64,000 nt of DNA from an uncultured candidatus Brocadiaceae bacterium (GTDB lineage: Bacteria > Planctomycetota > UBA1135 > UBA2386). Shown here one piece after another: positions 11,816 to 35,787 of the stretch. Both the position numbers and the translations under genes were made by a program. Below the pieces are notes generated by a model, which did not search any database, was not told the DNA's origin, and worked only from the letters and a program-made list of their open reading frames with translations. Within the stretch, counting starts at the first letter, position 1; each line of letters starts with the position of its first letter. The DNA is taken from the NCBI GenBank assembly GCA_964538915.1, contig CAZIFB010000005.1, forward strand, positions 43,747-107,746, written 5' to 3'.

Positions 11816-12284
11816 TCGCGGGCCGCCTCGAACCGAAGCGGCAACGCTCGGGATCGTGCCTGGCGTCCTCCTGGTCGCGCGTTCTTTTGACGTCTGGGTC
11901 CGCGAAGCTGGATGGCGTGGCACCGGCGGGAGATCGGGTCGTCACGAAACCTGTGCACAGCCAGGGAGTGATGTCTGGAGCTTCTGCGGATCCCTGTCGG
12001 GAGGTCTCCCGATGCTTCCCGGGTCGTCCCGCTCCTCGTCGCAAGACGTCGAGAATGTGGATCCGTGCACCGCATCTTCCGACCGTTTCTCCAGGCCCGT
12101 GAACCGCCCTGGAGCCGGCTTTCTTGCTTCGATGGCGACGATCCATCGCTAACCTATGCACACTCGCGACGGAACGGATGACGGTGACGAGAGAGTACTT
12201 CTCTCTCACTGAAGATCTCCCGTCTCGCGCGCTTGAGCCAACACACCCGGCACCCGCACCTTCGAAGCCCGCAAGCACCGTACG
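11816..12284. promoter_or_regulatory. dnaA-dnaN intergenic region: candidate oriC with DnaA-box-like motifs
   Basis: About 470 bp non-coding. Near matches to TTATCCACA/TGTGGATAA: TGTGGATCC 12056-12064 (7/9) and CTATGCACA 12154-12162 (7/9). A palindromic TGTGCACA sits within 11951-11959. Hairpin GAGAGAG-N5-CTCTCTC at 12189-12207. Confidence 0.35.
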
Positions 12285-13379
12285 ATGAAGATCCTCTGCG
12301 ACCGCAACGCGCTGCAAGAAGCCGTCACCGTCGTCTCGTCCGTCGTTCCGGCGAAGACCACGAAGCCCATCCTGCAGAACCTCCTGCTGCGGGCCGACAG
12401 CGAAGGCATCACGTTGTTCGCGACGGACCTCGAGATGGCGGCGCGGGTGCAGCTCGACTCCGTGAAGGTGTCGAAGAAGGGGACGGCGCTCCTGCCCGCT
12501 CGTGAGACCGCGGCGCTGCTCCGCGAGCTGGGTGAGCCCACCGTGACGCTCGACAGCAGCGAGCAGCGCTGCCGCATCGAGAGCGGCGGCGGCTCGTTCG
12601 TGCTCCTGGGCGAGGACCCGGAGCAGTATCCCGAGGAAGCGCTCGGCAAGGCGGGCAAGAAGGTCGAGATCGTGGCCGGTGCGATGCTGCGGATGATCCA
12701 GGAGACGGTCTTCGCGGCGGCACGGGAGGAGACCCGTTACGCGATCAACGGCGTCCTGCTCGACTGCGCAGCGGGGTGCCTGCGCCTCGTGGCGACCGAC
12801 GGCCGACGCCTCGCGATCAGCTACGAGAACATCGACACGAAGGTCGAGTTCAAGACGGTCGTTCCGCTCCGGGCTCTGCACACCTTGAGCCGTGCGCTGA
12901 CCGAAGGCAGCAAGGAGATGCTGCGGATCGAAGTCGGCGACAAGCAGATCACCTTTGCCGTCGGTTCGACCCAGCTGGTGAGCCAGCTGCTCGAAACGCG
13001 CTTCCCCGACTACGAGGGTGTGCTGCCGAAGTCGGCCGACACGACCGTCGAGGTCTCCAAGTCGCTGCTCGAAGGTGCGCTGCGCCGCGCCGCGATCTTG
13101 TCCTCCAACGACATGCGCATGGTGCGCTTCGAGGTCGCCGACGACCAGCTTCGGATGACCGCCGAGAGTTCCGCCCGCGGCCGCGCCGACGTCGCGATCC
13201 AGGCGGTGGTGAAGGGCGCCGGCGGCTCGATCAACTTCAACCCCGACTACATCCTCGAGGCGCTGCGCATCTGCAAGCTCGACCAGGTCCGCCTCGACAT
13301 GTCGGACGACTCGATGCCGGCGAAGTTCACGCTCGGCGAGTCGTTCACCTACGTCGTCATGCCCATCAGTGGGTCGTGA
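12285..13379 (+). CDS. dnaN: DNA polymerase III beta sliding clamp
   Basis: 364 aa. MKILCDRNALQEAVTVVSSVVPAKTTKPILQNLLL and the overall three-domain length match DnaN. Positioned after dnaA. Confidence 0.95.
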   Translation: MKILCDRNALQEAVTVVSSVVPAKTTKPILQNLLLRADSEGITLFATDLEMAARVQLDSVKVSKKGTALLPARETAALLRELGEPTVTLDSSEQRCRIESGGGSFVLLGEDPEQYPEEALGKAGKKVEIVAGAMLRMIQETVFAAAREETRYAINGVLLDCAAGCLRLVATDGRRLAISYENIDTKVEFKTVVPLRALHTLSRALTEGSKEMLRIEVGDKQITFAVGSTQLVSQLLETRFPDYEGVLPKSADTTVEVSKSLLEGALRRAAILSSNDMRMVRFEVADDQLRMTAESSARGRADVAIQAVVKGAGGSINFNPDYILEALRICKLDQVRLDMSDDSMPAKFTLGESFTYVVMPISGS

Positions 13380-13442
13380 CCCGGTGGATCCCGAGTTGCC
13401 GATCGTGAGCCGACGTTCTCCGTCGAGTACCGTCTGACTTCC

Positions 13443-16197
<2,755 letters not shown>

Positions 16198-16239
16198 CGG
16201 GCTCCTCGCGGCCACGATCCGCCCACCGCGAGGACCACG

Positions 16240-17688
16240 ATGCATCGACTTCGCTATTCGATCGGCGTGCTGACGCTGCTCGCCGCCGCGCTGTGCGCGC
16301 TGTGGTTCGTCAGGATCCTGAGGAACCAGGACGAACGACCCGGCCTCGCGGTCCGAGTCGAGTTCCGCGACGCACGCGGGCTGCGCTCTGGCGCCGACGT
16401 CCGCTACCGCGGCGTATCGGTCGGCACGGTGCGAACGGTCTCGATCGCGGGCGACGGTCGCAAGGCGACGGTCGGCATGCTGCTCGATCCGATCGGTGCG
16501 GCGCAGGCTTGCGTGAACAGCGTGTTCTGGATCGTCACGCCCCGGTTCGCCGGGATCACGACGGGCGCGTCCGGTCTCGACACGCTCGTCCGCGATTCCT
16601 ACGTGACCTTCCAGACGCCGGGCGAACGCGGTTCACCGCTCGCCGACGGCAGCCTGCTCGCCGGTCGCGAGAAACCGCCGCCGGCGGCAGACCCCGAAGT
16701 GCTCGACGAGATCGAACACGGCGATCTCCTGATGAGCGTTCTGGTGCCCGAGAACCACGGACTGCGTCCCGGCTCGGCGGTGATCTACCGCGGCCAGCAG
16801 ACCGGTGACGTGCGCAGCGTCGAGCTGGCGCCGGACGGGTCGCACGTCGAAGTGAAACTGCGCATCGCGCGCAAGCACCGTCAGACGGTCACCGACAAGT
16901 CGTTCTTCTGGGTCGCGCGTCCGGCCGTGACGGGTGCGCTGCTGTCCGGGTTCACGCTGAACGACGTGAGTGCCCTGCTCACGCCCTTCGTCAGCTACTA
17001 CTCCGAACCGGGGAAAGGCGTGCCCGTGGACGACGGTCACCGCGTCGCCGCGCAGCCGATGCGGCCGTCGTTCGAGGTCGCCGCGGTGCCGAAGGCAGCC
17101 CTGCAGCCCCGCCCGCGGCCGGATCCAGCACCGGGAGCGGACGGCATCGTCGTGGTGCGGATCGTCTACGACGCGATCGAGCGCGACACCTGGAGTGCGG
17201 ACGATCCGGTGCGCGGCGAGGGCAGCGGTCTCCTTCTGCTCGCGCACGACGGCCGTGCGATCGTGGTGACCGCACGATCCGTGGTCGACGGATCGGTGAC
17301 GACGAGCGATGCGTTCGGTCGCGCTCCACAGATCGAAGACGAGCGCACGAAGGTGATGTTGCCCGACGGCTCGGTGCTTCGCGCCGTGCGGATCTGGGTT
17401 CATCCGGATGGCGCGGACCTCGCGGTCCTGCTCCTCGAGGACGTGCCGCCCGACCTGCGCGCGAGCGCGACGGATCGGCTCGCACTCGCGGAGACGATGA
17501 CGGGCAGCGACGTGCGTTGCGCCGGCCCCGACGGCGCTCCGCTCGCCGTGGCCGCGATCGAGACGATTTCCGAAGGAGCCGCACTCGGCGGTGTCGTGGT
17601 CGCGTCCGAACGAGCAGTCGGCATCGTCGGTGCGGGCAGGAAGGTCGTGCCGCTGACCTCGCTGCCCTCCGATCTGCGGCCGCGATGA
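16240..17688 (+). CDS. Membrane-anchored double-MCE (PqiB/MlaD-like) protein fused to a catalytically degenerate trypsin/HtrA-like C-terminal domain
   Basis: N-terminal TM (IGVLTLLAAALCALWFV). Two MCE units (RGLRSGADVRYRGVSVGTVRTV..FWIV and HGLRPGSAVIYRGQQTGDVRSV..FFWVARP). The C-terminus follows the HtrA layout, but His is replaced (VTARSVV), Asp is kept (GADLAVLLL) and Ser is replaced (GAALGGVVV). Confidence 0.7.
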   Translation: MHRLRYSIGVLTLLAAALCALWFVRILRNQDERPGLAVRVEFRDARGLRSGADVRYRGVSVGTVRTVSIAGDGRKATVGMLLDPIGAAQACVNSVFWIVTPRFAGITTGASGLDTLVRDSYVTFQTPGERGSPLADGSLLAGREKPPPAADPEVLDEIEHGDLLMSVLVPENHGLRPGSAVIYRGQQTGDVRSVELAPDGSHVEVKLRIARKHRQTVTDKSFFWVARPAVTGALLSGFTLNDVSALLTPFVSYYSEPGKGVPVDDGHRVAAQPMRPSFEVAAVPKAALQPRPRPDPAPGADGIVVVRIVYDAIERDTWSADDPVRGEGSGLLLLAHDGRAIVVTARSVVDGSVTTSDAFGRAPQIEDERTKVMLPDGSVLRAVRIWVHPDGADLAVLLLEDVPPDLRASATDRLALAETMTGSDVRCAGPDGAPLAVAAIETISEGAALGGVVVASERAVGIVGAGRKVVPLTSLPSDLRPR

Positions 17689-19196
17689 CGAGCGCCATGG
17701 CGCCCGCTCTCGAATTCCGCCGCTTCGGCCTCGCACACCGCCGTCCCGGCGTCGAGGACGTGTTGCTCGCCGACGTGGACCTCATGCTCGAAGAAGGGCG
17801 CTTCTACCTCTTCGTCGGGGCGAGCGGCGGCGGCAAGTCGTCGGTGCTGCGCGTGCTCGCGGGGCTCGTCGAGACGCGCGAACCGGCCCCGCGCATCTCC
17901 GGCGAACTGCTCGCGTGGGGGAAGTCGATCGTCGGCGACGACCTCTCCGCGCTGCAGGGCAACGTCGCGGCGATCCTGCAGGACGAGGGACTGCTCGACG
18001 AGCTGAGCCCGCGCGAGAACGTCGAACTCGCGCTGCGCGCCGCCGATCGATCGCGCCTTCTGGCCCCGGGTCTGCTCGCCCAGGCCGGGCTCGTCGATCC
18101 ACCGGCACGCACCGCGCAGTTGTCGGGCGGGATGCGGAAGCGTCTGGCCGTCGCTCGGGCCCTGGCGTCGAGTCCGCGTCTGCTGCTCTGCGACGAACCG
18201 ACGGCCGGCCTCGACGAGGACGCCGCGCGTCGCATTGCACGCCTTCTTCGCGACGCGCACGAACAGGATCCTGGCCGCACGACGATCGTCATCACGCACG
18301 ACCTCGACGCGTTCGAAGGGATGACCGACGGCGTGCTCGTGCTCGATCGCGCAGCCCGTTCGTTGCGACTCGAACCGCCGGGTCACCGACCCGCCGCGAA
18401 GGAACCCGCCGCCCGGGCGCCGGATCCGGTGTCGGGCGAACCGGCGCCCGTGCATGGATTGCGCCGGCTGCTGCTGCAGACCGCGGCGGTGTTCGAGACC
18501 TTCGTCGAATCGCTGCGGCGCTTGCCGCCGGTGGAGTTCGGTCAGGTCGCGCGCACCGTCGCGCGCTTCTCGATCGAACCAGCGCCGTTCGTCGCGCTCG
18601 CCGGCGCCGTCATCGGCGGCCTCGCGACGTTCTTCGCATTGAACAACAACCCGGTCGAAGGCGGCTTCGAGTCCGCGCTCCTCACCGGCACGGGCAAGGT
18701 CGCGACCGCGGTGCTCGTGCCTCTGCTCAGCGGTTTCTTCTTCACGGCGCGCATCGTCGCCGGCGCCGCGGCGCGGATCGGCACGATGAAGCGCACCAAC
18801 CAGGTCGCCGCGCTGCAGATGATGGGCGTGCGCCCCGCGGACTGGCTGCTCACGCCGCTCGTGTGGGCGATGGTGATCGCGATGCCTCTGGTGACGTTCG
18901 CCGGCGTCGTCGCGGCCGCAGTCGCCGGGGCGTTCGCTGCCGGGACGGTGTCGGGATTCTCGACGGCCGGCTGGGCGCACGCGTGGTTCGCGACGGTGGA
19001 CGCCCGCGACGTGCTCGTCGTGCTCATGAAGTCCGCGCTGTCCGGGTACCTCGTGGCGCTCGCCTGCTACCACCTCGGCATCGGCCCCAAACGGTCGAGC
19101 GCGGACGTCGGGGATGCCGTGAATCGCGCCATTGTCGTCGGCACCGGACTCGTCCTGACCGTCCATGCGGTCGGCACCTTCGTGGTGTACGCCTGA
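17685..19196 (+). CDS. Fused ABC transporter ATPase (MlaF-like) and permease (MlaE-like)
   Basis: ATGA overlap with the MCE gene stop. GASGGGKSS (Walker A), LSGGMRKRLAVARAL (signature) and LLLCDEPTAGLD (Walker B). A Pro-rich linker is followed by a multi-TM MlaE-type region (ARIGTMKRTNQVAALQMMGVRP). Confidence 0.8.
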   Translation: MTSAMAPALEFRRFGLAHRRPGVEDVLLADVDLMLEEGRFYLFVGASGGGKSSVLRVLAGLVETREPAPRISGELLAWGKSIVGDDLSALQGNVAAILQDEGLLDELSPRENVELALRAADRSRLLAPGLLAQAGLVDPPARTAQLSGGMRKRLAVARALASSPRLLLCDEPTAGLDEDAARRIARLLRDAHEQDPGRTTIVITHDLDAFEGMTDGVLVLDRAARSLRLEPPGHRPAAKEPAARAPDPVSGEPAPVHGLRRLLLQTAAVFETFVESLRRLPPVEFGQVARTVARFSIEPAPFVALAGAVIGGLATFFALNNNPVEGGFESALLTGTGKVATAVLVPLLSGFFFTARIVAGAAARIGTMKRTNQVAALQMMGVRPADWLLTPLVWAMVIAMPLVTFAGVVAAAVAGAFAAGTVSGFSTAGWAHAWFATVDARDVLVVLMKSALSGYLVALACYHLGIGPKRSSADVGDAVNRAIVVGTGLVLTVHAVGTFVVYA

Positions 19197-23025: not shown

Positions 23026-23113
23026 CCGACGGCCTCTGTTCGTTCACCATGGGATGAGGTTCACGCCACTCTGTGGACCGGAGCGGGCCGACTCACTACC
23101 GTCCCCGCCCCCC

Positions 23114-24706
23114 ATGAGCGACAAGCCCATCTTCGCCCTCGAACGGCTCACCAAGAGCTACCAAGGCAAGAAGCCGGTCCTGAAGGACGTCAGCCTCGTG
23201 TTCCTCGAAGGCGCCAAGATCGGCGTCATCGGCCAGAACGGCGCCGGCAAGTCGACGATGCTCCGCATCATGGCCGGCGTCGACAAGGAGTACGACGGCA
23301 CGGCGCGCCTCGCCGAGGGCAAGACGGTCGGCTACGTGCCGCAGGAGCCGAAGCTGCTCGAAGACCTCACGGTGCGCGGCAACGTCGAGCAGGCGGTCGC
23401 GCCCGTCCGCATGCTGCTGCGCAAGCACGAGGAGCTGTCCATGAAGCTCGGCGAGGACCTGCCGCCGAAGGAGATGGACAAGGTGATGGCCGAGCTCGAA
23501 CGGCTGCAGCACGAGATCGAGGCGAAGGACGCGTGGGAACTCGACCGCCACGTCGAGACCGCGATGACGAAGCTGCACCTGCCGCCCGGCGAGAAGATGG
23601 TGAACGCGTGCTCCGGCGGTGAACGGCGCCGCGTCGCGCTGTGCCGCACTCTGCTCGAGCATCCCGACCTGCTGCTGCTCGACGAACCGACGAACCACCT
23701 CGACGTCGAGACCGTCCGCTGGCTCGAAGAGACGCTGCGCGAATACAAGGGCACGGTCGTCTGCATCACGCACGACCGCTTCTTCCTCGACAACGTCGTC
23801 GGCTGGATGCTCGAGGTCTGGCACGGCAAGGCGATCCCGTACCAGGGCAACTACTCCGAGTACCTGATCCAGCGCAGCAAGCGCATGCAGGTGCAGGAAG
23901 TGCAGGAGCAGCGCCGCTCGAAGTTCCTCGACCGCGAACTCGAGTGGATCCGCATGAACCCGAAGGCGCGCACGACCAAGAACAAGGCACGCCTCAAGAA
24001 CTACGACAAGATGCTCGAGCAGGAGGTCGAGGAGAAGGACGACACCGTCGAGCTGCACATCCCGCCGGGCAAGCGCCTCGGCGACACCGTCATCCGCTTC
24101 GAGAAGGTCAACTTCGCGTACGACAAGGAACACAACGTCGTCGAGAACCTGTCGTTCGAGCTGGCGCCCGGCGACATCCTCGGCATCGTCGGTCCGAACG
24201 GCACCGGCAAGACGACCTGCCTCAAGCTCATCACCGGCAGGCTGAAGCCCGACAGCGGCAAGGTGACCGTCGGCCAGACGGTCGAGCTGTGCCACGTCGA
24301 CCAGGAGCGCGAGACGCTCGATCCGGCGAAGACCGTGTGGCAGGAGATCAGCGACGCGCAGGACATCATCAGGCTCGGCAAGTTCGAGGTGAACAGCCGC
24401 AGCTACGTCGCGAAGTTCAACTTCACCGGTCCCGACCAGCAGCAGCTCGTCGGCTCACTGTCGGGCGGTCAGCGCAATCGCGTGCAGCTCGCCAAGATGC
24501 TGCGCCGCGGCGGCAACGTGATCCTGCTCGACGAGCCGACGAACGACCTCGATCTCGACACGCTGCGCGTTCTCGAAGAGGCGATCGCCGAGTTCCCCGG
24601 CTGCGTCGTGGTCGTGTCCCACGACCGCTACTTCCTCGATCGCATCTGCACGAAGATCCTCGACCTCGGCAACTACGAGCCGGGCAAGTACCTCGACAGT
24701 CTGTGA
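23114..24706 (+). CDS. ettA: ABC-F ATPase, EttA-like translational throttle
   Basis: ATG at 23114. Closely parallels E. coli EttA: GAKIGVIGQNGAGKSTMLRIMAGVDKE, CSGGERRRVALCRTLL, ITHDRFFLDNVVGWMLE. Second cassette has GIVGPNGTGKTT and LSGGQRNRVQLAKML. Confidence 0.9.
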   Translation: MSDKPIFALERLTKSYQGKKPVLKDVSLVFLEGAKIGVIGQNGAGKSTMLRIMAGVDKEYDGTARLAEGKTVGYVPQEPKLLEDLTVRGNVEQAVAPVRMLLRKHEELSMKLGEDLPPKEMDKVMAELERLQHEIEAKDAWELDRHVETAMTKLHLPPGEKMVNACSGGERRRVALCRTLLEHPDLLLLDEPTNHLDVETVRWLEETLREYKGTVVCITHDRFFLDNVVGWMLEVWHGKAIPYQGNYSEYLIQRSKRMQVQEVQEQRRSKFLDRELEWIRMNPKARTTKNKARLKNYDKMLEQEVEEKDDTVELHIPPGKRLGDTVIRFEKVNFAYDKEHNVVENLSFELAPGDILGIVGPNGTGKTTCLKLITGRLKPDSGKVTVGQTVELCHVDQERETLDPAKTVWQEISDAQDIIRLGKFEVNSRSYVAKFNFTGPDQQQLVGSLSGGQRNRVQLAKMLRRGGNVILLDEPTNDLDLDTLRVLEEAIAEFPGCVVVVSHDRYFLDRICTKILDLGNYEPGKYLDSL

Positions 24707-24733: not shown

Positions 24734-25291
24734 TCAGTGGCGCTTCAGGCCGATCGCGAGGCCGGTCACGGCGAGGCCGGCGGTCGGCAGACTGCCGGTG
24801 ACGAAGCGCTGGAAGCTGCTCCACTCGTCGGCGACGTTCTGCGTGAAGCGGTTCCACACGCCGTCGATCGCCGTCCAGTCCACGACGACGAGTCCGTAGT
24901 GCGCGAGCACGAGGGTCATCGCGAGCCAGAAGCCGAACGCGATCGCCGCGACCTTCAGCATCGCACGCACGAACGAGCCGAGGCAGAAACCGGCGACGAA
25001 GCCGAAGCCGAGCCGGAACACGCCCTTCGCCGCAGGCTCCTCGCCGACCGTCGTGCTGCCATGCGGCGATGGGTTGCCGGCGGTGAGGCTCGACGCGATG
25101 CCGGGCGACGTGCCGCCCGTCGAACCGCCGACCGGGGGTGCTGGCGCAGCGAGGGTCAGCGCCGCGCCGACGACCACAGCGGCGACCGCGACACCGACCG
25201 CGATCTTCTTCCAGCGCGGCATGTCACGGAGCCAACCGACGAACGTGCGGTCGTTCGGGACCTTCGCAGGCGGTGGTGCGGGTTCGTCCAT
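24734..25291 (-). CDS. Membrane protein, FUN14-like C-terminal region
   Basis: 185 aa. TM helices after a Pro/Gly-rich segment. GFGFVAGFCLGSFVRAMLKVAAIAFGFWLAMTLVLAHYGLVVVDW resembles FUN14 family topology. Confidence 0.45.
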   Translation of the reverse strand: MDEPAPPPAKVPNDRTFVGWLRDMPRWKKIAVGVAVAAVVVGAALTLAAPAPPVGGSTGGTSPGIASSLTAGNPSPHGSTTVGEEPAAKGVFRLGFGFVAGFCLGSFVRAMLKVAAIAFGFWLAMTLVLAHYGLVVVDWTAIDGVWNRFTQNVADEWSSFQRFVTGSLPTAGLAVTGLAIGLKRH

Positions 25292-25395: not shown

Positions 25396-26430
25396 ATGCG
25401 ACACCTCTTCACAGCTGCCGCCATCGCGATGTTCGCGGGCGGTGTTCTCGCCCAGGATCGGGTCACGCTCGCCAACGGCGACGTGCTCACGGGCACCATC
25501 AAGTCGATGGCCGACGGCAAGCTCGTCATCACGTCGGCTCTTCTCGGTGACATCACGGTCCCCATGGCGAACGTCAGCGACGTCGTCACGAAGGAAGCCG
25601 TCACGCTCGAGACCGCCACCGGCGACCGCCTCTTGAACCGCAAGATCCTCGGCCTCGAGGGCGGCAATCTGAAGCTCGAAGGTGCGACGACCTCGCTCGC
25701 GATGAAGGACCTCGGCAAGATCAATCCGCCGGAGAAGGTCGAGCCGAAGTGGACCGGCTCGGTGAAGCTGAGTGCGCTCTGGGCGGACGGCAACACCGAT
25801 CGGCGCGCAGTCGGCGCCGCGTTCGACGCGTCGCTGCGCCGCGAGGACGACCGGATCTCGCTCGACGCTGCGTGGGACTACAGCGAAGACAAGGACACGG
25901 ACTCGACGTCAGCGACGTTCCGCGACTGGAAGCTGAATCAGCGCCGCGCCGGCGGTGGCATCAAGTACGACTACTTCATCAGCAAGAAGTGGTACGTGCT
26001 GGTGACCTCGCGCGTGCTCGGTGACACGCTCGCCGACATTCAGCTGCGCTACACCGGCGGCCTCGGCATCGGCTACACGTGGGTGGAGAACGACTCGACG
26101 ACGTTCCTGACCGAAGTGGGTCTTTCGTACTTCAACGAGAACTACCGCACGCCTGGCGTGGAGTCGCAGGACTACCTGGCCGCACGCGCCGCCTACAAGC
26201 TGACCCACGCGTTCAGCGACGAAACCAAGCTGGTGCACGGTGTGGAAGCGTTCCCCTCCCTCGAAGACGGAGCCGACGTGTACCTGCAGGCGAAGACGGA
26301 GGTCGTCACATCGCTGACCGATTCCATGATCGCGTCGATCGCACACGTGCTGGACTACGACAACACGCCGGCGCCGGGCCGCGACCGCGTCGACAACCGC
26401 GTGCTGCTGTCCGTCGGCTGGTCGTTCTGA
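25396..26430 (+). CDS. DUF481 family outer-membrane beta-barrel protein
   Basis: Signal peptide MRHLFTAAAIAMFAGGVLAQD. N-terminal LANGDVLTGTI..DGKLVI repeats. Alternating-residue barrel region ending in SVGWSF (terminal aromatic). Confidence 0.7.
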   Translation: MRHLFTAAAIAMFAGGVLAQDRVTLANGDVLTGTIKSMADGKLVITSALLGDITVPMANVSDVVTKEAVTLETATGDRLLNRKILGLEGGNLKLEGATTSLAMKDLGKINPPEKVEPKWTGSVKLSALWADGNTDRRAVGAAFDASLRREDDRISLDAAWDYSEDKDTDSTSATFRDWKLNQRRAGGGIKYDYFISKKWYVLVTSRVLGDTLADIQLRYTGGLGIGYTWVENDSTTFLTEVGLSYFNENYRTPGVESQDYLAARAAYKLTHAFSDETKLVHGVEAFPSLEDGADVYLQAKTEVVTSLTDSMIASIAHVLDYDNTPAPGRDRVDNRVLLSVGWSF

Positions 26431-26491: not shown

Positions 26492-29011
26492 TCAGTAGTT
26501 GGTCGCGAATTCGCTCGCCTGGAGCATCGAGCCGCCGAAGCGGTCCGCGTGGCCGCGGTTCATCCCGCCGAAGCGAGGCAGGAACTCGAGGCGGAACGTC
26601 GTCTCGTCCGCGTACGGGTTGTAGCTGGCGTTCGCGGAGATCGACCAGTCGTGGTCGTTGCGCACGAGGCCGAACGAGTAGGACAGCCACCTGTCCTCGG
26701 TCAGGTCGCGCTGGCTGCCCCCGAACACGCTCCAACGGTCGAACAGGCGCGTGCTGCCGTTCACGCCGACGGCGCCCCTCACGACGAGGTCCTCGCGGTA
26801 GTCGACCGTCCACGTGATGCCGGCGATGCGACCGACGCGCAATTCGGTGTCGAGCGTGCGCATGCCTTCCTTCCAGTCGTGGTCGCCGTAGACCGCGAAC
26901 GCGAAGTCCTCGAACGGCAGCCACGAGATGTGGGGGCGCAGCAGCAGGTCGTAGTAGAAGAGGCCGATCGACTCGCCGCCGTTGTCGCGCGCGGCGTCAG
27001 GCCAGAAGTCCTGCGCCAGGTCGAGCAGCACGACGTCGCGCGGGTGCGCCGGTCCGGCCTTCGGGTCCTTGGTCCCCATCTGCTGCAGCAGGTTGCGCAC
27101 CTCGACGCGCACGAGTTCCTGCTCCTGCAGCGTGTCCGTCGCGTCGAACTCGAAGAATTCGCTCGGCGGATCGTCGACGCGGAACCGGTTGCGCCAGGTG
27201 ACCTTCGGCGCGATGACGTGGCGCAGCGCTTCGGGGCCGTCGTCGCCGGTCCACGAGAACGTCTTCGACAACCTCGTGCCGAGTGCGACGCCGCCCTCGA
27301 ACGCGATGCGACCTTCGGCGCGGCCGTCGACCGCTTCGTCGAACCAGGTTCCGCGGGCGGACGTGTAGGGCCGCAGGTTCCACGGGCCGATCGCGAACGG
27401 CGCGGACACTTCCACCAGCTGATCGGCGCGGAACGTCCGGTCGGACACCCGCACGCCGGCGCGGTCGTCGTACGCCGAGCGCCGCTGCCCGAGTTCGGTC
27501 GCGGCATCGACGACGATCGGCGTCTGCCACGGCGTCTCGCCGATCGGTTGCGCGATCCAGTCGTACGTGACGACGGGCAGTTCCTCGACGAAGCGGTCCG
27601 CGAGCGCGCGGTCGTCGCGATAGCTGAAGTCGTCGAGGTTCCAGCGTGTGCCGATCGTGAAGAGCCGATTGCCGTCCGAGTGGTGGAGGTAGCTGCTCGT
27701 CTCCGGCGTCTCCTGGATCCGGTACTCGCCCGGGAAGAACTCGGGCAGCACCGCCGGATCGGTCGCGCGGAACGCGACGAGGTCGAGGTGCGTGCTCGGC
27801 CCGATGTGGAGGCGGTTCTCGGTCGAGATCAGTCCGCGCATCTCGTTGTCGCGCGGCGAGCCGTCGAAGTTGCCCTGGATCTCGCGCAGGTCGGGCCCGC
27901 GGTCGTCGAGCCAGAAGCCGTTCAGCCTGCCGTCGTACAGGCCCTCTGCGCGGTACCGCAGTTCGCCGTCGAGCGGAACGCCGCGCTTCTCCACCCAGCC
28001 GACGCCCAGCTCCCAGTCGCCGCGGAACTCGTGCGCGGGCCGCCCGGTGATGGCCCGGTGCAGCGTGCCGCCGGTCTTGTTCCACGGCAGCCCGAACACG
28101 ATCTCGGCCTTCGTACCCTCTTTCTGCGAGTAGCTGCCGCTCGCGCGTTTGATCGGGAACTCGCTCTGGCTCTTCGTGAAGATGCGCGCGTCGGGGAGCG
28201 GCAGAACGCTGGTGCCGCCGATCTGCAGCGTCTGTCCGCGCGCCACCACTTCGAACTCGCCGTCGCGCTCGATGATCTCGGCTTCGCCGACCGCGGCGGC
28301 CGCGTGCGGTTCGCCGGCCGTGCACGTCGTGATCGTGAGGTCGCGGCCGGTCCACCGCGCGCCCTGTTTCACGAGGCGATCGCCGCGGACGACGAGCAGG
28401 TTGCGCGAGTCCTTGCCGGGCGTGAAGTACCGGATCTCGGCTTCTTCGACCACGATGCGGTCGTCGAGCGGCGAGATCCACATCCGCGCACAGTTCAGCA
28501 CTTCGATGCCGTCGCGCACGACGACGACACCGCCCTCGAAGTAGAGGTAGCGGAACAGGTCGATCGCCTGGTCGGCGGAGCGGGTCCTGGGCAGACCTTC
28601 GGCTCGGCCGACTGCGCGCAGCGTGCGATCGAGACGTTCGCGCAACTGCTCTGTCGACAGGCGGCGGCGCGGCTCGGGCGGCTCGATGCCGCGCCGCGGC
28701 GGCCCCGACGAGTCGGGGCGCTGGATCGCCGAACGGGTCTCCTCCAGATCGGACAGGAGCACCGCGTTGCGGCCCCGCACCTCGATGCCGAGGCTCGGCG
28801 CGCGGAAGCGAAACCCGCCGATCAGGAACAGTTCGCGGTAGTCGTCGCGGTCGCCGGACCGCATCCACGCCGCGTCGTAGACGTAGCTGCCGTCCGCCGG
28901 GCCGTTGGCTTCCGGAGCGACGGGCTGCGCCGGCGGCGGATCCTGCTGCGCGAGCGCGTTCGTGGCGACCGCACACGCCGCGAGCGCGAGACTGGCGAGG
29001 CCGTCCCTCAC
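26492..29011 (-). CDS. lptD: Large outer-membrane beta-barrel protein, probable LPS-assembly protein LptD
   Basis: 839 aa. Signal peptide ...AVATNALAQQ. C-terminus ...ASEFATNY (aromatic end). GTGA start overlap with the upstream 982 aa gene in a kdsD-kdsC operon. Assignment is mainly by context and architecture. Confidence 0.55.
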   Translation of the reverse strand: MRDGLASLALAACAVATNALAQQDPPPAQPVAPEANGPADGSYVYDAAWMRSGDRDDYRELFLIGGFRFRAPSLGIEVRGRNAVLLSDLEETRSAIQRPDSSGPPRRGIEPPEPRRRLSTEQLRERLDRTLRAVGRAEGLPRTRSADQAIDLFRYLYFEGGVVVVRDGIEVLNCARMWISPLDDRIVVEEAEIRYFTPGKDSRNLLVVRGDRLVKQGARWTGRDLTITTCTAGEPHAAAAVGEAEIIERDGEFEVVARGQTLQIGGTSVLPLPDARIFTKSQSEFPIKRASGSYSQKEGTKAEIVFGLPWNKTGGTLHRAITGRPAHEFRGDWELGVGWVEKRGVPLDGELRYRAEGLYDGRLNGFWLDDRGPDLREIQGNFDGSPRDNEMRGLISTENRLHIGPSTHLDLVAFRATDPAVLPEFFPGEYRIQETPETSSYLHHSDGNRLFTIGTRWNLDDFSYRDDRALADRFVEELPVVTYDWIAQPIGETPWQTPIVVDAATELGQRRSAYDDRAGVRVSDRTFRADQLVEVSAPFAIGPWNLRPYTSARGTWFDEAVDGRAEGRIAFEGGVALGTRLSKTFSWTGDDGPEALRHVIAPKVTWRNRFRVDDPPSEFFEFDATDTLQEQELVRVEVRNLLQQMGTKDPKAGPAHPRDVVLLDLAQDFWPDAARDNGGESIGLFYYDLLLRPHISWLPFEDFAFAVYGDHDWKEGMRTLDTELRVGRIAGITWTVDYREDLVVRGAVGVNGSTRLFDRWSVFGGSQRDLTEDRWLSYSFGLVRNDHDWSISANASYNPYADETTFRLEFLPRFGGMNRGHADRFGGSMLQASEFATNY

Positions 29012-31956
29012 CGCGCGATGGCCTCGTTGCGAATGACCTGCTCGAGCCGGCCGCGGTACGTGGTGACCGTCATCGTCTCGTAGTTGAGTTCGATTCGCGG
29101 CGCGACGAAGCGGCGGTCGTCGGGCAGGGTCACGACCGCGCCGTCCGGATCGCGAGCGATCAGGCGGCCCCAGCGAAGGTCGAGTTCGACCTCGGCACTG
29201 TGCGCCTTCGCCTGCGACCAGTCGAGGTCGACGCCTTTGCCGAGCACCTGGACCACTTCGCCGGTGTCCTTGCGGCGCACCATCCGCAGCTGTTCGGCGC
29301 CGATCTGCATGCCTTCGTCGTCCGCCTCACCGTCGGGCCGCAGTGTGTGTGCCTTCACCGGACCGTGGAACACGACTGCGTCCGGCATCACTTCGATGTC
29401 GCCCTGGCACGACGAGGTCATGTGCGCCAGCAGACCGGGCGAACGCGGGTCGTGCAACGTCACGGTCGGGAGCACGAACGTCGAACGATCCGGGAACGCG
29501 CGCAGCGCCTGCAGCCGGACCGAGTCGTCGCGGAACACCCGCACCTGCGCACCGCGGGCGATCGCCTCGCGACCCTCGTGCGTGCGCCGCACTTCGGCCG
29601 GCACGAGGTCGTCCGGATCGCCGAGGAACAACGCTGCCTCCGCCCCTTGCGACAGCACGAGCCGCTTGCCGACGCCGTCGAACACACCTTGCCGCGGATC
29701 CTCGAGGTGGAAGCGGTGCACGCCGTCGGCGATGAGCCAGGCCTTGCCGAGCGCGTGGAACGGCAGCCCGGCGACCGGCCCCGTCGCTCCGGCCGCGAAC
29801 ATGCGTTGTGCTTCGCGGGTCATCGCGAACGGCAGCGCGCGCAGACGATCGGCCTCGAACGTCGACGTGCTGGCTGTCCCGGCCGGGTCGGCCCACGTCG
29901 CGGTCACGACGGGCCGCCAGTCTTCCACGGCGACCGCATCGACGAACACGTCGCTGCCGCCGAGGTGGTGTGCGTCGATGCGCGGTCCTTCGACGACGAC
30001 CTCCATCGCAGGGTGATCGCCGGTGGCCGCGATCTGCCGAGACAGCACGGGGCGTGCATGCTCACGCGCGAGGTCGAACCAGCGACGTTCTGGATCGTTC
30101 TGGTCCGCGGTCGTGAGTCGCAGCGAGCCGGGGCCGATCTGTTCGAACCGCGGCGCCGTTGCGGTCACGACGTCGCCGTCGCGGGAGCGCGTCGCGCGGG
30201 CGGGCAGGCCGGCGGCATCGAGGCTCGCGACCTCCGTGTCCTCGAGCACGACGTCGAGCGCGTTGAGACCGTCGAGGTCGACACCCTGGGTGCCGAGCCG
30301 GGCGGAGATCGTCGGACCGGGAGCGCGCAGCACGACGTTCGTGCGGGTCCCGCGCCGGATCACTTCGCACGCGCCGGTGCCGTGCGCCTTCGCGTTGCCC
30401 TGCACGACTTCGTAGTGGTGCGACGACCGCCATTGCGATCGTTCCGCTGCGACCGCGGGTGCGGGCGGGCCGAGGCGCCAGCGTTCTCCTTCGGGCGAGA
30501 GCAGCGCGGCGAAGCCGTCGTTGCCCGTGACGAGCATCCCGCGCGGGTTCTCGGTCGTCGGTCGCCGCTCGATCCGCACCGCCCCGGATCCCCGTGCCGC
30601 GCCGAACCTGCTGTCCGTTCGCGAGAGAACCTGCAGACCCTTGCTGGAGGTGATCGTTCGCGACGCGTCTTCGATGCGCGAATCGCCCTCGAACGCGACA
30701 CAGTGCGTCTTCGTGAGGGGCCGCAGCGTCCACTGCGGGAACCCGAACTGGCGGTGCGTCGCCCCGACCGAGTTGCCGATGTCGAGCACGTGGATGCGCC
30801 GCGGTGACGTGCCGCGCAGCACTCCGTCGATCTTCGTGTTCGCACCGAAGCGGTCGATCTCGACGGTCGACTCGCCGCCGTACGCCGTGATCTGGCACGC
30901 ATCGCCGAGCGGACCCGGCAGCACCTTGATCTTCGGGGTGCGCAGCTTGTCGCGGCCCATCGTGACCACGGCGGGTGCACCGGTGAACAGCAGTTGGCGC
31001 CATGCGAGGCGCCCGCCGCCGCGGGCGGGGTCGTCGCGCTCCGCGCGGAGCAGCCGACCCACGAACTGGTCGCCGCGAATCTCGATCGGCTCGGCGTCGC
31101 CACCGCCCTTCGCTCCGCCGCCGAGGCCGGCGCCGCCGCTCGTGATCACGAGGCGCACGTCGTCGTCGAGCGTGACCCGCCCGGCGCCATCGGCGAGATC
31201 CTCGGACCAGTGCAGGCGACCCTTCGCAGTGACCCGGGCCCCGTCCGTCACGAGGTCCGGCTCGTGCAGAACCTCGACGTCGATGCGCTGCAGCGGGCTC
31301 TTCCGATCACGCGGGAAGCGCGCTTGCAGGCCCTTGCCGCGCAGCGTGCCGCTGCGCTCGCCGGCGACGACGAGATTCACCGGATCGGTTTCGTTCGCCG
31401 TCGTGACGACCAGCTCGTCGTCGCCGACCTTCACCTTCGCGTTGCCCAGCTCGAGGCGCATGCCGGGATGGCTCGAACCGGGCAGCGTGTGGATCACGGC
31501 ATCACGAAGGTCGATGTCCTTGTGCTCGCGCAGCGACGGCTTGCCGCTCGCGTCGCGGTCGAGTTCGAGGAACGCCTGTCGCGCGATGAGACGCACCGTC
31601 GGCGTGTCGTGCTCGAAGAGCAGCACCTCGACGTCGTCCAGTTGCTGCACGGCTTCGCTGATGGGTGCGCTGTCCGCCGCGGACAGATGGAACACCTTCT
31701 CGTTGCGCGTGGATCCGTCGGGAAGTCGGATCGACCGGAACTGCGGCAGCTCGATCGGACCGTTCTGCGACACGGACACCGGGATGCGCCCTTGCTGCGT
31801 CGTGACGCCGGCGGGCGGTCGCGGTCGCGGGGTCGTCGTGGTCGAGGTCGCGCTGGGCTCGCTGTTCGCGCGCACGGTTTCGTCGTCGCCCACGGCGAAG
31901 TGCAGCGCCGTGATGCCGAGCGCGACGAGCAGCAGGAATGCGAGCAGGCGCTTCAC
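29008..31956 (-). CDS. Membrane-anchored 982 aa periplasmic protein in the lptC/lptA position of the kds-lpt operon
   Basis: GTG at 31956-31954 forms a GTGA overlap with the kdsC stop. N-terminal anchor is VKRLLAFLLLVALGITALHF. Long beta-rich sequence, but no motif I can name with certainty. Confidence 0.6.
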   Translation of the reverse strand: MKRLLAFLLLVALGITALHFAVGDDETVRANSEPSATSTTTTPRPRPPAGVTTQQGRIPVSVSQNGPIELPQFRSIRLPDGSTRNEKVFHLSAADSAPISEAVQQLDDVEVLLFEHDTPTVRLIARQAFLELDRDASGKPSLREHKDIDLRDAVIHTLPGSSHPGMRLELGNAKVKVGDDELVVTTANETDPVNLVVAGERSGTLRGKGLQARFPRDRKSPLQRIDVEVLHEPDLVTDGARVTAKGRLHWSEDLADGAGRVTLDDDVRLVITSGGAGLGGGAKGGGDAEPIEIRGDQFVGRLLRAERDDPARGGGRLAWRQLLFTGAPAVVTMGRDKLRTPKIKVLPGPLGDACQITAYGGESTVEIDRFGANTKIDGVLRGTSPRRIHVLDIGNSVGATHRQFGFPQWTLRPLTKTHCVAFEGDSRIEDASRTITSSKGLQVLSRTDSRFGAARGSGAVRIERRPTTENPRGMLVTGNDGFAALLSPEGERWRLGPPAPAVAAERSQWRSSHHYEVVQGNAKAHGTGACEVIRRGTRTNVVLRAPGPTISARLGTQGVDLDGLNALDVVLEDTEVASLDAAGLPARATRSRDGDVVTATAPRFEQIGPGSLRLTTADQNDPERRWFDLAREHARPVLSRQIAATGDHPAMEVVVEGPRIDAHHLGGSDVFVDAVAVEDWRPVVTATWADPAGTASTSTFEADRLRALPFAMTREAQRMFAAGATGPVAGLPFHALGKAWLIADGVHRFHLEDPRQGVFDGVGKRLVLSQGAEAALFLGDPDDLVPAEVRRTHEGREAIARGAQVRVFRDDSVRLQALRAFPDRSTFVLPTVTLHDPRSPGLLAHMTSSCQGDIEVMPDAVVFHGPVKAHTLRPDGEADDEGMQIGAEQLRMVRRKDTGEVVQVLGKGVDLDWSQAKAHSAEVELDLRWGRLIARDPDGAVVTLPDDRRFVAPRIELNYETMTVTTYRGRLEQVIRNEAIAR

Positions 31957-32507
31957 GGTCGACCTTCCCCGCGCACGACGGCATCCCACGCGCCCCGTGC
32001 GCGCAGAAGTTCTTCGACGACGTCTCGGGCGGCGCCGAATCCAGCCGCGCGGTGGGAGACGTAGTGGACGGCCGGGGCCAGTTCCGGTCGGGCCTCGGGC
32101 ACGGTTGCGGCGAACCCGACCTGCCGCAGGACGGGCAGGTCGAGGAGGTCGTCGCCGACGTAGGCGACCTGGACCGGCTCCAGGCCGCGGCGCTGCAGGA
32201 TCTCCTGGAACGCGACGGCCTTGTCCACCCGACTCAGCACGACCTCGTGGACGCCGAGTTCGCGCGCCCGCCGCTCGACGACTTCTCCGCCTCGACCCGA
32301 CAGGAAACCCGACTGCCCGCCGGAGCGGTGCCAGTACACGAGCCCGGCGGCGTCGTGCACGTGGAACGACTTGTACTCCTTGCCGTCGCGGTCGAAGTGG
32401 ATGCGGCCGTCGGTGAGCACGCCGTCGACGTCGAGCAGGAGCAGGCGGATCGCCGCCAGGGTGCGGTCGTCGGGTCGCGGTCGACCGGGAACGAGCGGTT
32501 GGGGCAT
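31953..32507 (-). CDS. kdsC: 3-deoxy-D-manno-octulosonate 8-phosphate phosphatase (HAD-IIIA)
   Basis: 184 aa. LLLLDVDGVLTDGRI, SGRGG and YVGDDLLDLPVL motifs of KdsC. 1-nt overlap with kdsD. Confidence 0.85.
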   Translation of the reverse strand: MPQPLVPGRPRPDDRTLAAIRLLLLDVDGVLTDGRIHFDRDGKEYKSFHVHDAAGLVYWHRSGGQSGFLSGRGGEVVERRARELGVHEVVLSRVDKAVAFQEILQRRGLEPVQVAYVGDDLLDLPVLRQVGFAATVPEARPELAPAVHYVSHRAAGFGAARDVVEELLRARGAWDAVVRGEGRP

Positions 32508-33478
32508 CAGCCGATCTTCAGGTTCAGGAGATCCTGCACGTCGAGCAGGCCCAGGAGGCGGCCGTCGGTGTCCACGACGGGCAGCTGGTCGAGATGGAAC
32601 TGGTGCAGCGTCGCGAGCGCTTCGAGGGCGAACGTCTCGGTGCCGATGCAGCGAGGGTTCTTCGTCATGGCTTCGTCGATGCGGCTCTGGCGCGGATCCT
32701 GGAGGCCGCGCTCGATGAGTCGGCGCAGGTCGCCGTCGGTGAAGAACCCGAGCAGCCGACCTGCGGCGTCGACGACGCTGGTGGCTCCCGGTCGGCCGGG
32801 GGTCCGGGTCATGACCTCGATCGCCTGCAGCACCGTCGCCCCGCTGCGCACCTGCGGGTTGCGGTCGCCGGTGCGCATCAGTTCACCGACGCGCATGAGG
32901 CGTCGGCCCAGGTCGCCGCCGGGGTGGAAGCGGGCGAAGTCCTCGGGGCCGAAGCGCCGCCCCTCCTGAACGACGAGCGCGAGCGCATCCCCGAGGGCCA
33001 GCATCGCGGTCGTCGAAGCACTCGGCGCGAGGCCGTACGGCCCGGCTTCGTCGATTCGACCGAGTTCGAGCACGAGGTCGCAGTGTCGGCCGAGGGTCGA
33101 CTTCGCGTCCTGCGTGATGCCGACGATCGGCACGGCGGCGGCTTTCACGTGCGGCAGCATCACGAGCAGCTCCTGCGTCTCGCCGGACTTCGAGAACGCG
33201 AGCAGCAGATCGCCTGCGTCGACGCGGCCGAGGTCGCCGTGGATGGCTTCGGCCGGGTGCAGGAAGATGGATGGTGTTCCGGTCGAGGCGAGCGTGGCGC
33301 TGACCTTCTGCGCGATGAAGCCTGCCTTGCCCATGCCGGCCGTCACGACCCGGCCGCGCAGGCCGAGGATCATGTCGATCGCGCGCAGGAACGGCGCGCC
33401 GATGCCCTCGGCGACCTGGCGTACGGCGGCGGCTTCGCGCTCGACGATCTCGCGAGCGCGTTCGATCCTCGGGTCCAT
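32507..33478 (-). CDS. kdsD: Arabinose-5-phosphate isomerase (SIS plus tandem CBS domains)
   Basis: 323 aa. GRVVTAGMGKAGFIAQKVSATLASTGTPSIFLHPAEAIHGDLG is the SIS domain; the C-terminal CBS pair includes QLPVVD. Confidence 0.9.
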   Translation of the reverse strand: MDPRIERAREIVEREAAAVRQVAEGIGAPFLRAIDMILGLRGRVVTAGMGKAGFIAQKVSATLASTGTPSIFLHPAEAIHGDLGRVDAGDLLLAFSKSGETQELLVMLPHVKAAAVPIVGITQDAKSTLGRHCDLVLELGRIDEAGPYGLAPSASTTAMLALGDALALVVQEGRRFGPEDFARFHPGGDLGRRLMRVGELMRTGDRNPQVRSGATVLQAIEVMTRTPGRPGATSVVDAAGRLLGFFTDGDLRRLIERGLQDPRQSRIDEAMTKNPRCIGTETFALEALATLHQFHLDQLPVVDTDGRLLGLLDVQDLLNLKIG

Positions 33479-33533: not shown

Positions 33534-34733
33534 TCAAACGCCCGTCGAGGACGGCACGTTCGCCGGCAGCAGATCGTCCTGACGGGCCATCGTCATCGCC
33601 CGTTCGAACCACTCGTCGATGCGGTCGAAGCGGCCGGTTCGCTCGAGCCACTTGCGGTCGAACTGCCGTCTTGCCGCTTCGACGCGGGCTTCGTCGCCGG
33701 TGGCCGCGAGCATTTCGGCGAGTGTGTCCGCAACGTGCACCGCGCCGGTCACCCCGAACTCCGAGAGGCCGCTCGAGCTCGGCCAGTGGTGGTGGAGTAC
33801 GGCTTCGACGATGAGCAGAGGCAGACCCCAGACCGAGATCAGGTAGGCGCCGACCCGCGGGTGCAGCGCGGCGAGTTCGGCTTCCGCGAGGCGACCCTCG
33901 CCGTAGCCGCGGCCAGCCATCACGAGCTCACCCACGTCGTGCAGGAGCCCGACCGTGAACGCCGCTTCGGAGTCCGACGGGTCCGCGACGATGTCTGCGG
34001 CGAGCCGCGCGACGAGCACCGCGTGGCGCTGGCGGTCCGACAGGAACTCGTCGCTCGCCAGCCCGGCGTGCCCGATGTTGTCGAAGATCTCCGCGCCGAG
34101 CACGAGCTGCTTCAGGCGCGCGAGGCCGATGTACGCAGTGGCCTGGCGCAACGACGACATCGGGCGAGACGGGCCGAAGTAGCTCGAGTTGACGATCTGC
34201 AGCAGCTTCGTCGCGAGACCCGGGTCTTCGCTGATCGTCTTGGACACGACGTCGAGACTCACCTCCGGATCGGCCAGCGCTTCCGACAGTGCGAGGAACG
34301 TCTGCGGGGGCGACGGCAGCGCGGTCAGCCGATGCACCACGGCGCGCAGTTCTTCCGACGCCAGATTCGATTGCACGACGAGAGCGCGGTTCACGACGTC
34401 GACGAGCGTCGCTGCAGTGCAGGGAATCGCGACGCACTGGTGCGCCACAGTCGCCGCCTGCAGCGCCACCGGACTACCGAACGTCTTGGTCAGCGCGAAG
34501 CGGATCGCGCGCGGCTGTTGTCGGCGCGCGTCGCGCAGGAGATTCACTCCGTTCAGTCCGAGGCGCTCGACGTCGACGAAGACGAAGTCGAACACACCGT
34601 TCTGCAGGCGATCCTTCGCTTCCGCGACCGTGGCGACGCGTTCCGGGTTCCACGTGGCCGAGCGATCGAGGCGCAACCGGGCGATCGTCTCGATCAGACC
34701 GGGGTTGTCCGTGACGAACAGGAGATGCTTCAT
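33534..34733 (-). CDS. Receiver-like domain plus HDOD domain signalling protein
   Basis: ATG at 34733-34731 (MKHLLFVTDNPG...). HDOD-type region has LPSPPQTFLALSEALADPEVSLDVVSKTISEDPGLATKLLQIVNSSYFG and GLLHDVGELV. The 5' part of the track ORF was dropped. Confidence 0.75.
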   Translation of the reverse strand: MKHLLFVTDNPGLIETIARLRLDRSATWNPERVATVAEAKDRLQNGVFDFVFVDVERLGLNGVNLLRDARRQQPRAIRFALTKTFGSPVALQAATVAHQCVAIPCTAATLVDVVNRALVVQSNLASEELRAVVHRLTALPSPPQTFLALSEALADPEVSLDVVSKTISEDPGLATKLLQIVNSSYFGPSRPMSSLRQATAYIGLARLKQLVLGAEIFDNIGHAGLASDEFLSDRQRHAVLVARLAADIVADPSDSEAAFTVGLLHDVGELVMAGRGYGEGRLAEAELAALHPRVGAYLISVWGLPLLIVEAVLHHHWPSSSGLSEFGVTGAVHVADTLAEMLAATGDEARVEAARRQFDRKWLERTGRFDRIDEWFERAMTMARQDDLLPANVPSSTGV

Positions 34734-34818
34734 CCGGAGCCTTTTTCGCCAGGATCCCCCACGATGTTCATGAGGGAGAGCCCTCACGGAACGGCGCGCT
34801 CGATGGGGTCGCAGGGCG

Positions 34819-35787
34819 TCAGGATCGGCCGTTGCCAGCGATGTCGGCGACCACGGACAGAAACTGCCCACGGATCGAAGCGCGCAACGACGTGGTCCGG
34901 CGCGCGATCACTTCGCCGTCGAGGGTGACCGGCAGGGGTGTCGAAGGCGACATCACGACTTCGTTGCAGCGCTCGAGTCGGACACGCGGATCCCGGCCGT
35001 GCCGCCGGCGGAGCAGGCGGGCGAGGAGGCCGAGCGTGGCGAACGCGGACGACGACGTGACGCGGAGCACGTCGAGAGCGTTGTCCTCGACCGAGGCGTC
35101 CGGAGCGAAGTGCAGTCCGCCGCCGACGCGCGGCCCGTTGCACGCCGACGCGAAGAGCACGGGCAGGGTCTCGGTCACCGCCGTGCTGCCGCTCGTGTAG
35201 GTCATGTCGCAGTCGACGACCCGCTGCCGCCGCGCCGCGCGCACCGTCGCCGTGAGGTAGAGCGGCAGGCCGCGCAGCCAGCGCAGTTCGCCGGCCGCGA
35301 GCACGACGTCGGCTTCGAAGCCGAGACCTGCGTCGTTGACGAAGAGACGCTGCACCGCGCCGTGTTCGCAGTCGAGCCGGGCGTCGCCGACGTCGATCGT
35401 TCGTGTACGGCCGTGCGCCAGTCGAAGCGCCAGCTCGTCGACGTCGCGCGTCTGCCCTGCATTCGCCGCGAAGTCGTCGCCGCTGCCGGCCGGCAGCACC
35501 GCGAAAGGCCCGATGCGGCCGGCGCGCACGGGCAGTCCGTTGACGCATTCGTTCACCGTGCCGTCGCCGCCGATCGCCACCACCGCACTCGTGGCATCGC
35601 GTGCGAGGGTCGTGGCGTGGCCCGCGCCCGTCGTCTCGACGATCCGGAACGCGAGCCCGCGACGACGCAGACTCTCGGCCAGACGCTCGGCCCGCGCTCG
35701 CGCCGCCCCCTTTCCCGCGCGCGGATTGGCGATCACCAGGATCTCTTTCGCGGCGTGCGGATCGCGCGTCATCGGCGCGCCGAGCAT
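34819..35787 (-). CDS. Diacylglycerol/lipid kinase family protein (YegS/BmrU/LCB5-like)
   Basis: C-terminal 322 aa of the 34819..36840 ORF. ATG at 35787 (alternative 35772). ILVIANPRAGKG and VVAIGGDGTVNECVNGL are the DAGK catalytic-domain motifs. Confidence 0.8.
   Translation of the reverse strand: MLGAPMTRDPHAAKEILVIANPRAGKGAARARAERLAESLRRRGLAFRIVETTGAGHATTLARDATSAVVAIGGDGTVNECVNGLPVRAGRIGPFAVLPAGSGDDFAANAGQTRDVDELALRLAHGRTRTIDVGDARLDCEHGAVQRLFVNDAGLGFEADVVLAAGELRWLRGLPLYLTATVRAARRQRVVDCDMTYTSGSTAVTETLPVLFASACNGPRVGGGLHFAPDASVEDNALDVLRVTSSSAFATLGLLARLLRRRHGRDPRVRLERCNEVVMSPSTPLPVTLDGEVIARRTTSLRASIRGQFLSVVADIAGNGRS

Follow-up and report, generated by a model that had tools for sequence, protein, structure and literature searches.

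In Escherichia coli, kdsD and kdsC are followed in order by lptC, lptA, and lptB (kdsD-kdsC-lptC-lptA-lptB), and for this paradigm of lipopolysaccharide (LPS) transport both the number of LptA units and the match between the bridge and the width of the periplasm are unsettled. Planctomycetes have been scored in a phylogenomic homology survey as having a 'largely reduced' Lpt system (PMC8871954), and our searches of the full-text literature, including that on Lpt in Planctomycetes, turned up no account of an Lpt bridge that is fused or giant. Here we describe a locus in a 64 kb stretch of DNA (about 70% G+C [GC]; referred to below as the window) from an uncultured candidatus Brocadiaceae bacterium (contig CAZIFB010000005.1, positions 43,747 to 107,746 of the forward strand), in which the slot after kdsD-kdsC is taken by a gene for a single all-beta protein of 982 residues with an N-terminal anchor (which we refer to as the giant protein), and this gene runs directly into lptD. 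On the basis of predicted structure, gene order, and conservation across related loci, we consider it probable that the giant protein is equivalent, as one polypeptide, to LptC together with several LptA units, carrying LPS from LptB2FG to LptD.

Gene order and identity of the flanking genes

The four genes are kdsD (32507-33478), kdsC (31953-32507), the giant gene (29008-31956), and lptD (26492-29011), all on the minus strand, and their open reading frames (ORFs) and junction sequences are chained by overlaps of one or four nucleotides, exactly as the original prediction had described. The kdsD stop and the kdsC start share a single base, 32507, in the sequence TGATG (GGCTGATGCCC), and the kdsC/giant junction (CCGTGAAGCGC, 31956-31953) and the giant/lptD junction (GCGGTGAGGGAC, 29011-29008) are both four-nucleotide GTGA overlaps; the giant gene is translationally coupled to kdsC on one side and to lptD on the other. 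The longest ORF for the giant protein extends to 31989 (993 amino acids), and we prefer the start at 31956 (982 amino acids) because the 982-residue protein P0121 is 100% identical and all homologues start at that point with M-K-R. A scan for promoters and terminators gave no signal above the shuffle expectation.

The first two genes encode enzymes of 3-deoxy-D-manno-octulosonic acid (Kdo) synthesis. KdsD, an arabinose-5-phosphate isomerase of 323 amino acids (Pfam SIS and two CBS domains), scores 267.1 bits on TIGR00393 (KpsF/GutQ), above the curated NCBIfam cut-off of 203.7, and is 41% identical to E. coli KdsD; KdsC, a Kdo-8-phosphate phosphatase of 184 amino acids, scores 130.2 bits on TIGR01670, above the curated cut-off of 106.95, and is 42% identical to the E. 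coli enzyme.

In each of the 17 related loci that we recovered, lptD is immediately preceded by the giant gene. The order kdsD-kdsC-giant-lptD holds, as far as the contigs reach, in 14 loci (L002 and L004-L016), with identities of 78-87% for KdsD, 65-75% for KdsC, 55-68% for LptD, and 39-51% for the giant protein. It is also found in a distant locus (L003) in which KdsD is 56% and LptD 31% identical and the giant protein is recognized only by the hidden Markov model (HMM) of its family, and in a further locus (L019) kdsC is absent and kdsD, a giant gene (1059 amino acids), and lptD (835 amino acids) are kept; the giant-lptD pair survives in distant loci in which LptD is merely 31-33% identical. 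Because the arrangement recurs in L002, L004-L016, and L003, and as kdsD-giant-lptD in L019, we conclude that it is not due to chance. All of the related records are metagenome-assembled genomes of uncultured 'Planctomycetota bacterium', with 61-72% GC. Two of the contigs (L010 and L016) bear the titles 'Candidatus Kuenenia stuttgartiensis' and 'Brocadiaceae'; their GC content of 69-71% is like that of the rest of the clade, and these taxonomic labels look wrong because the GC content of Kuenenia is about 41%.

The 839-residue product of the last gene is a bona fide but divergent LptD. Its AlphaFold2 (AF2) model (mean predicted local distance difference test [pLDDT] 73, predicted template modeling score [pTM] 0.63) is made up of a signal-like helix, a beta domain at residues ~44-310, and 25-26 long strands at residues 329-812, as assigned by DSSP. 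The 37 best Foldseek matches of this model in the PDB are exclusively LptD (E down to 2.6e-27), with template modeling (TM) scores of 0.53-0.60 when the target is full-length LptD (865-920 columns) and of 0.64-0.67 for core barrels; the first other family in the list is that of the TonB-dependent receptors, at E 2e-7 and TM 0.3. The protein itself matches nothing above the Pfam and NCBIfam thresholds, and PF04453 (LptD) is matched by 17 of its 26 homologues (54-75% identity, best E 1.7e-7), with several homologues carrying the NCBI name LptD. The structural matches and the PF04453 matches in homologues identify the barrel as LptD and as no other family of outer-membrane proteins; the sequence ends in ...ATNY, so that the aromatic C-terminal residue noted in the original prediction is present.

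The two parts of this LptD can be placed on the DNA from DSSP and from the alignments to known structures. Residues ~44-310 (28082-28882, minus strand) form a periplasmic N-terminal beta-jellyroll by full-length LptD alignment, which is the expected docking site for the C-terminal end of the giant protein, and residues ~329-812 (26576-28027, minus strand) form an outer-membrane barrel of ~26 strands by comparison with core barrels. A conserved, Arg-rich insert interrupts the N-domain at residues ~89-151 (28559-28747, minus strand); it is predicted to be helical or disordered, is of low pLDDT, and is marked by the consensus SGLPRRGIxPPAPRRRLSP, in which P112, R115, and R116 are invariant. E. 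coli LptD is not known to have an insert of this kind; it could serve as a docking element or bind LPS phosphates.

Family and predicted structure of the giant protein

The giant gene is a real gene with a family of its own: it has 64 full-length homologues of ~960-1050 amino acids at 38-90% identity, with a Pfam domain in none of them. When 1.84 billion representative proteins were searched exhaustively with an HMM, the family came to only 181 clusters, made up of full-length relatives (878-1122 amino acids) and fragments; the most divergent matches cover residues 1-~215 only, and there was no link to short LptA or LptC proteins. A word-indexed search that started from an alignment of the most divergent members brought up nothing besides its query. 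Family members differ little in length (median 980 amino acids, 5th to 95th percentile 925-1035).

In the AF2 model (mean pLDDT 82, pTM 0.64), the giant protein has 64 beta strands up to residue 973, with 55.6% of residues in strands and 6.4% in helices, and a helix at residues 2-21, in keeping with the N-terminally anchored, beta-rich protein that had been anticipated. This all-beta model has local similarity to LptC, LptA, and LptD. Foldseek matches it to full-length LptD in the PDB (E 3e-7 to 1e-4), to LptC (3my2 and 4b54_B, TM 0.73-0.75), to LptC within LptB2FGC (6mit_C, TM 0.56), to LptA chains (2r1a and 2r19_B, TM 0.61-0.65), and to LptH (4uu4, TM 0.62), all with probability 1.0; the alignments to LptC, LptA, and LptH have 15-18% identity over ~155 columns. 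Two other matches were set aside: a phage tail fibre, the best match in the viral library BFVD (E 1.7e-7), was rejected for its negligible TM of 0.11, and LRP2, likewise a top Foldseek match, was rejected as meaningless (tail-fibre and LRP2 TM 0.04-0.11).

Along the sequence, the strongest conservation is at the N-terminus. Residues 1-22 (31891-31956, minus strand) are a K/R-rich N-terminus and a hydrophobic helix, a putative inner-membrane signal-anchor, and conservation in the family peaks in the first 25 residues (2.63 bits for this 25-residue window, compared with a mean of 1.85 in an alignment of 137 sequences); the motif M-x-K/R-K/R-h-L-x-F-h-L-L-h-x-x-G...L...A-h-G is kept in members with 17-23% overall identity. 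Cleaved signal peptides are seldom conserved to such a degree, as a transmembrane helix that contacts a partner (such as that of LptC in LptB2FG) would be, and the conservation of the helix therefore favors a functional transmembrane anchor over a disposable signal peptide. Residues 23-61 (31774-31890, minus strand) form a Pro/Thr/Ser-rich linker that is predicted to be disordered (pLDDT <50) and is gap-rich and the least conserved part of the protein. The first beta module, at residues ~68-250 (31207-31755, minus strand; boundaries approximate), has long antiparallel strands and is the best-conserved beta region (2.1-2.5 bits, with residues 76-250 second only to the anchor); it is the putative LptC-equivalent end.

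A conserved and confidently predicted helical insert follows at residues 393-415 (30712-30780, minus strand; DSSP helices 393-403 and 408-415). Its motif, HRAFGFPQWTLRPL (FGFPQWTLRPL), is near-invariant, with G405, P407, and W409 invariant in 31 sequences, and this hairpin is the sole strongly conserved non-beta element of the giant protein besides the anchor. The remainder, residues 417-975 (29032-30708, minus strand), is assigned to further beta modules from DSSP and pLDDT, with short-strand, LptA-like stretches at ~417-560 and ~787-900, long hairpins at ~559-615, 739-769, and 901-958, and a low-confidence helical loop at 711-739.

A candidate one-piece bridge and its alternatives

The position of the giant gene, which fills the slot that lptC-lptA occupy after kdsD-kdsC in E. 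coli, supports its reading as a bridge, and the mechanism that we propose runs in the order of its predicted parts. The N-terminal helix would be seated in the inner membrane, like the LptC transmembrane helix at the LptF/LptG gate, and would be followed by a flexible linker of ~40 residues, beyond which the conserved first beta module would dock edge-to-edge onto the periplasmic jellyroll of LptF/G. The acyl chains of LPS would slide along a groove of ~900 residues of beta structure, and the C-terminal module would dock onto the N-terminal jellyroll of LptD, with which the giant protein is co-translated; the LptD barrel would then insert LPS into the outer leaflet. The LPS cargo, the docking partners, and the continuity of the groove are what we infer in this scheme. 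In size the giant protein would correspond to about 5-6 LptA equivalents (~900 folded residues, compared with ~135-150 per LptA), and with its modules in line it would therefore span very roughly 20-25 nm, by scaling from LptA. As to its history, we put the chances at about even that this Planctomycetota clade swapped a modular LptC/LptA system for one genetically fixed bridge of ~980 residues, co-translated with LptD.

Several results weigh against this reading. The AF2 model was built from a 31-sequence alignment, and all of the structural evidence is prediction; each Foldseek alignment finds the Lpt-like fold in one module of ~155 residues, so that the model supports at least one such module, and a continuous multi-module groove over ~900 residues is suggested by size, strand content, and weaker matches to bridge proteins. 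The giant protein has no family match in Pfam or NCBIfam, and when 31 members were compared with Pfam at E up to 10 there was one match to LptC (PF06835, E 0.27) and none to LptA/OstA (PF03968); one of 10 highly divergent members (P0267) matches LptD_N/OstA PF03968 at a sub-threshold E of 0.1. A profile of the family gives only a chance match to PDB sequences (E 1.8). Comparisons with hhalign, using family alignments of 31 and 137 sequences, are not significant against E. coli LptC (E 0.49-0.55), E. coli LptA (aligned at 378-534, E 0.09-0.13), the LptD N-domain (aligned at 822-973, E ~0.1), or the N-domain of the clade's own LptD (E ~0.09 or worse). Self-comparison finds no significant internal repeat (best off-diagonal E 0.02-0.05), and a chain of concatenated LptA units is therefore not demonstrated. 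No LptB-type ATPase was found in the window or in the flanks of 10 kb on either side of the related loci, and LptB2FG was not located there; the search for stand-alone lptA and lptC covered these same regions. The original prediction of a fused or expanded LptC/LptA-type bridge is supported: the OstA/Lpt-type fold is found in the AF2 model (LptC, LptA/LptH, and LptD at probability 1.0), and the slot and the synteny agree with it, with the structural support extending to one module, and the expected link is missing at the level of sequence. Because the giant protein falls outside PF06835 and PF03968 by sequence, we class it as LptC/LptA-like in working and fold, and not as a demonstrable member of either family.

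Much of the same evidence bears on a different explanation, in which the giant protein is an AsmA/TamB-type or bridge-like lipid-transfer protein for phospholipid or another lipid that merely accompanies an LptD-like barrel, as TamB does TamA, and is not a descendant of LptC/LptA. An N-terminal anchor followed by ~1000 all-beta residues is the body plan of TamB and YhdP, the protein lacks both sequence repeats and an OstA signature, and many of its strands, at 13-18 residues, exceed those of LptA in length. The model as a whole also resembles extended lipid-transfer grooves, if more weakly, in its long alignments to ApoB100 (probability 0.85-0.90) and LPD-3 (probability 0.44) in the PDB and to two chorein-N (VPS13-like) proteins in BFVD (probability 0.98 and 0.85, ~750 columns, TM ~0.13), the global matches to chorein-N proteins and LPD-3 having low TM (0.11-0.15). 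However, the best local, target-normalized matches are to LptC and LptA (TM 0.61-0.75, probability 1.0), the conserved partner barrel is LptD and not Omp85, and the conserved genes upstream serve the synthesis of the LPS precursor Kdo; moreover, Pfam matches to AsmA, AsmA_2, DUF490/TamB, and chorein-N are absent from all 31 members (E up to 10) and from the 10 distant members. We regard a lipid-transfer protein of this type as unlikely.

The absence of any LptE candidate near lptD, and the tight coupling of the giant gene to lptD, would also suit an LptD-specific partner: canonical LptC and LptA, encoded elsewhere, would form the bridge, and the giant protein, while sharing the Lpt fold, would be an accessory of the LptD translocon, for instance as a scaffold, as an assembly factor, or in place of the LptE plug. 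Among the other ORFs of the window and the flanks of 10 kb on either side of the relatives' loci, none matches the LptA, LptC, LptF, LptG, or LptE families. The anchor, which is of inner-membrane type and more conserved than any other segment, points instead to a partner in the inner membrane, a length of 982 residues is far above that of LptE (~190 amino acids in E. coli), and the gene stands in the exact lptC-lptA slot, all of which makes such an accessory role quite improbable in our estimation. The view that the giant protein is an unrelated, beta-rich protein of the periplasm or the surface (such as an adhesin or a fibre), co-transcribed by accident, could draw on the tail-fibre match and on the lack of any family assignment by sequence, but it is already disfavored, and is very improbable, given synteny held over 17 loci down to ~20-30% identity, four-nucleotide overlaps with both neighboring genes, and specific LptC, LptA, and LptD fold matches next to a negligible tail-fibre TM.

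If the giant protein is indeed a one-piece equivalent of LptC and LptA, then it is a natural covalent Lpt bridge, in which the length of the LPS conduit, and with it the envelope spacing that can be served, is written in a single gene. With one polypeptide of tight length (925-1035 amino acids), the length and geometry of the bridge could be measured directly, which would bear on the length that a bridge requires and on its number of jellyroll units, and structural studies of a complete trans-envelope complex would gain an attractive target. The 'missing' Lpt components of planctomycetes would then be accounted for as well: components too divergent to detect would yield a 'largely reduced' Lpt system in surveys (PMC8871954), and divergence of Lpt components past HMM detection would matter for arguments about outer-membrane evolution that are built on such surveys.

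Surrounding genes and comparison with known systems

The window was said to have no lptB adjoining the operon, and this holds: its ABC ATPases are two ABC-F proteins and one MlaF-MlaE fusion. Upstream of kdsD by 55 bp, on the same strand, is a gene for an HDOD protein with a degenerate receiver domain (33534-34871, minus strand), which is probably outside the core operon because it is kept upstream in some relatives only (L004 and L006). Downstream of lptD are a convergent gene for a DUF481 outer-membrane protein (25396-26430, plus strand), a FUN14-family gene (24734-25291, minus strand), and an ABC-F ATPase gene (23054-24706, plus strand); these three genes likewise follow lptD in L002, and the conserved neighborhood therefore reaches past the four-gene operon. 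A dnaA-dnaN-(small ORF)-gyrB cluster lies at 10274-16194 (plus strand), from which we conclude that the window probably adjoins the chromosomal replication origin; the Kdo/Lpt operon is ~10-17 kb away from this cluster, and the neighborhood in L002 is alike. Directly after gyrB, at 16198-19193 (plus strand), are genes for a long MlaD-domain protein (496 amino acids, with two MlaD stretches and a weak Trypsin_2 match) and for an MlaF-MlaE fusion (559 amino acids, ABC_tran plus MlaE), an arrangement that is also present in L002. A long MlaD brings to mind the trans-envelope MlaD bridge of Veillonella (PMC10665443), and by this analogy the organism may use one-piece bridges for phospholipids too.

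Set against the E. coli system, the giant protein resembles LptC in having a single N-terminal helix followed by predicted beta structure, and its predicted beta-jellyroll superposes on those of LptC and of LptA/LptH (the LptA fold being a jellyroll of ~16 antiparallel strands), with LptD as its presumed outer-membrane partner. It differs in being one polypeptide of 982 amino acids, whereas E. coli has an LptC of 191 amino acids and one or more copies of a 185-residue LptA. Unlike LptA, which is small and soluble and oligomerizes head-to-tail, it is anchored, and the length of the bridge would be set by the gene and not by oligomerization. Many of its strands are much longer than those of LptC and LptA, it has two helical inserts, and its sequence has no detectable similarity to theirs; in the operon, lptD and not lptB comes next. 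The 839-residue protein shares the N-terminal jellyroll and ~26-strand barrel of the LptD/LptE translocon (5iv9, 4q35, 4rhb, and 5ixm), and departs from it in its Arg-rich N-domain insert of ~60 residues, in having no lptE nearby, and in sharing an operon with Kdo genes and the bridge gene.

Beyond the Lpt system, the closest likeness is to long beta proteins of the AsmA-like/TamB-TamA, VPS13 chorein-N, and BLTP1/LPD-3 kinds, which the giant protein resembles globally in Foldseek and in being a long, N-terminally anchored beta protein paired with an outer-membrane barrel. Unlike AsmA-like proteins and TamB, it has no AsmA, TamB, or DUF490 signature, its partner is LptD and not Omp85, its best local matches are to Lpt proteins, and its genetic context is that of Kdo synthesis; the giant protein blurs the boundary between Lpt jellyroll chains and bridge-like lipid-transfer proteins (TamB/AsmA and VPS13). 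The long MlaD of Veillonella parvula, which is reported to form a trans-envelope bridge (PMC10665443), differs from the giant protein in fold (MCE), cargo (phospholipid), and system, and is like it in concept, in that, in a lineage outside the Proteobacteria, one extended polypeptide is found where E. coli uses separate parts.

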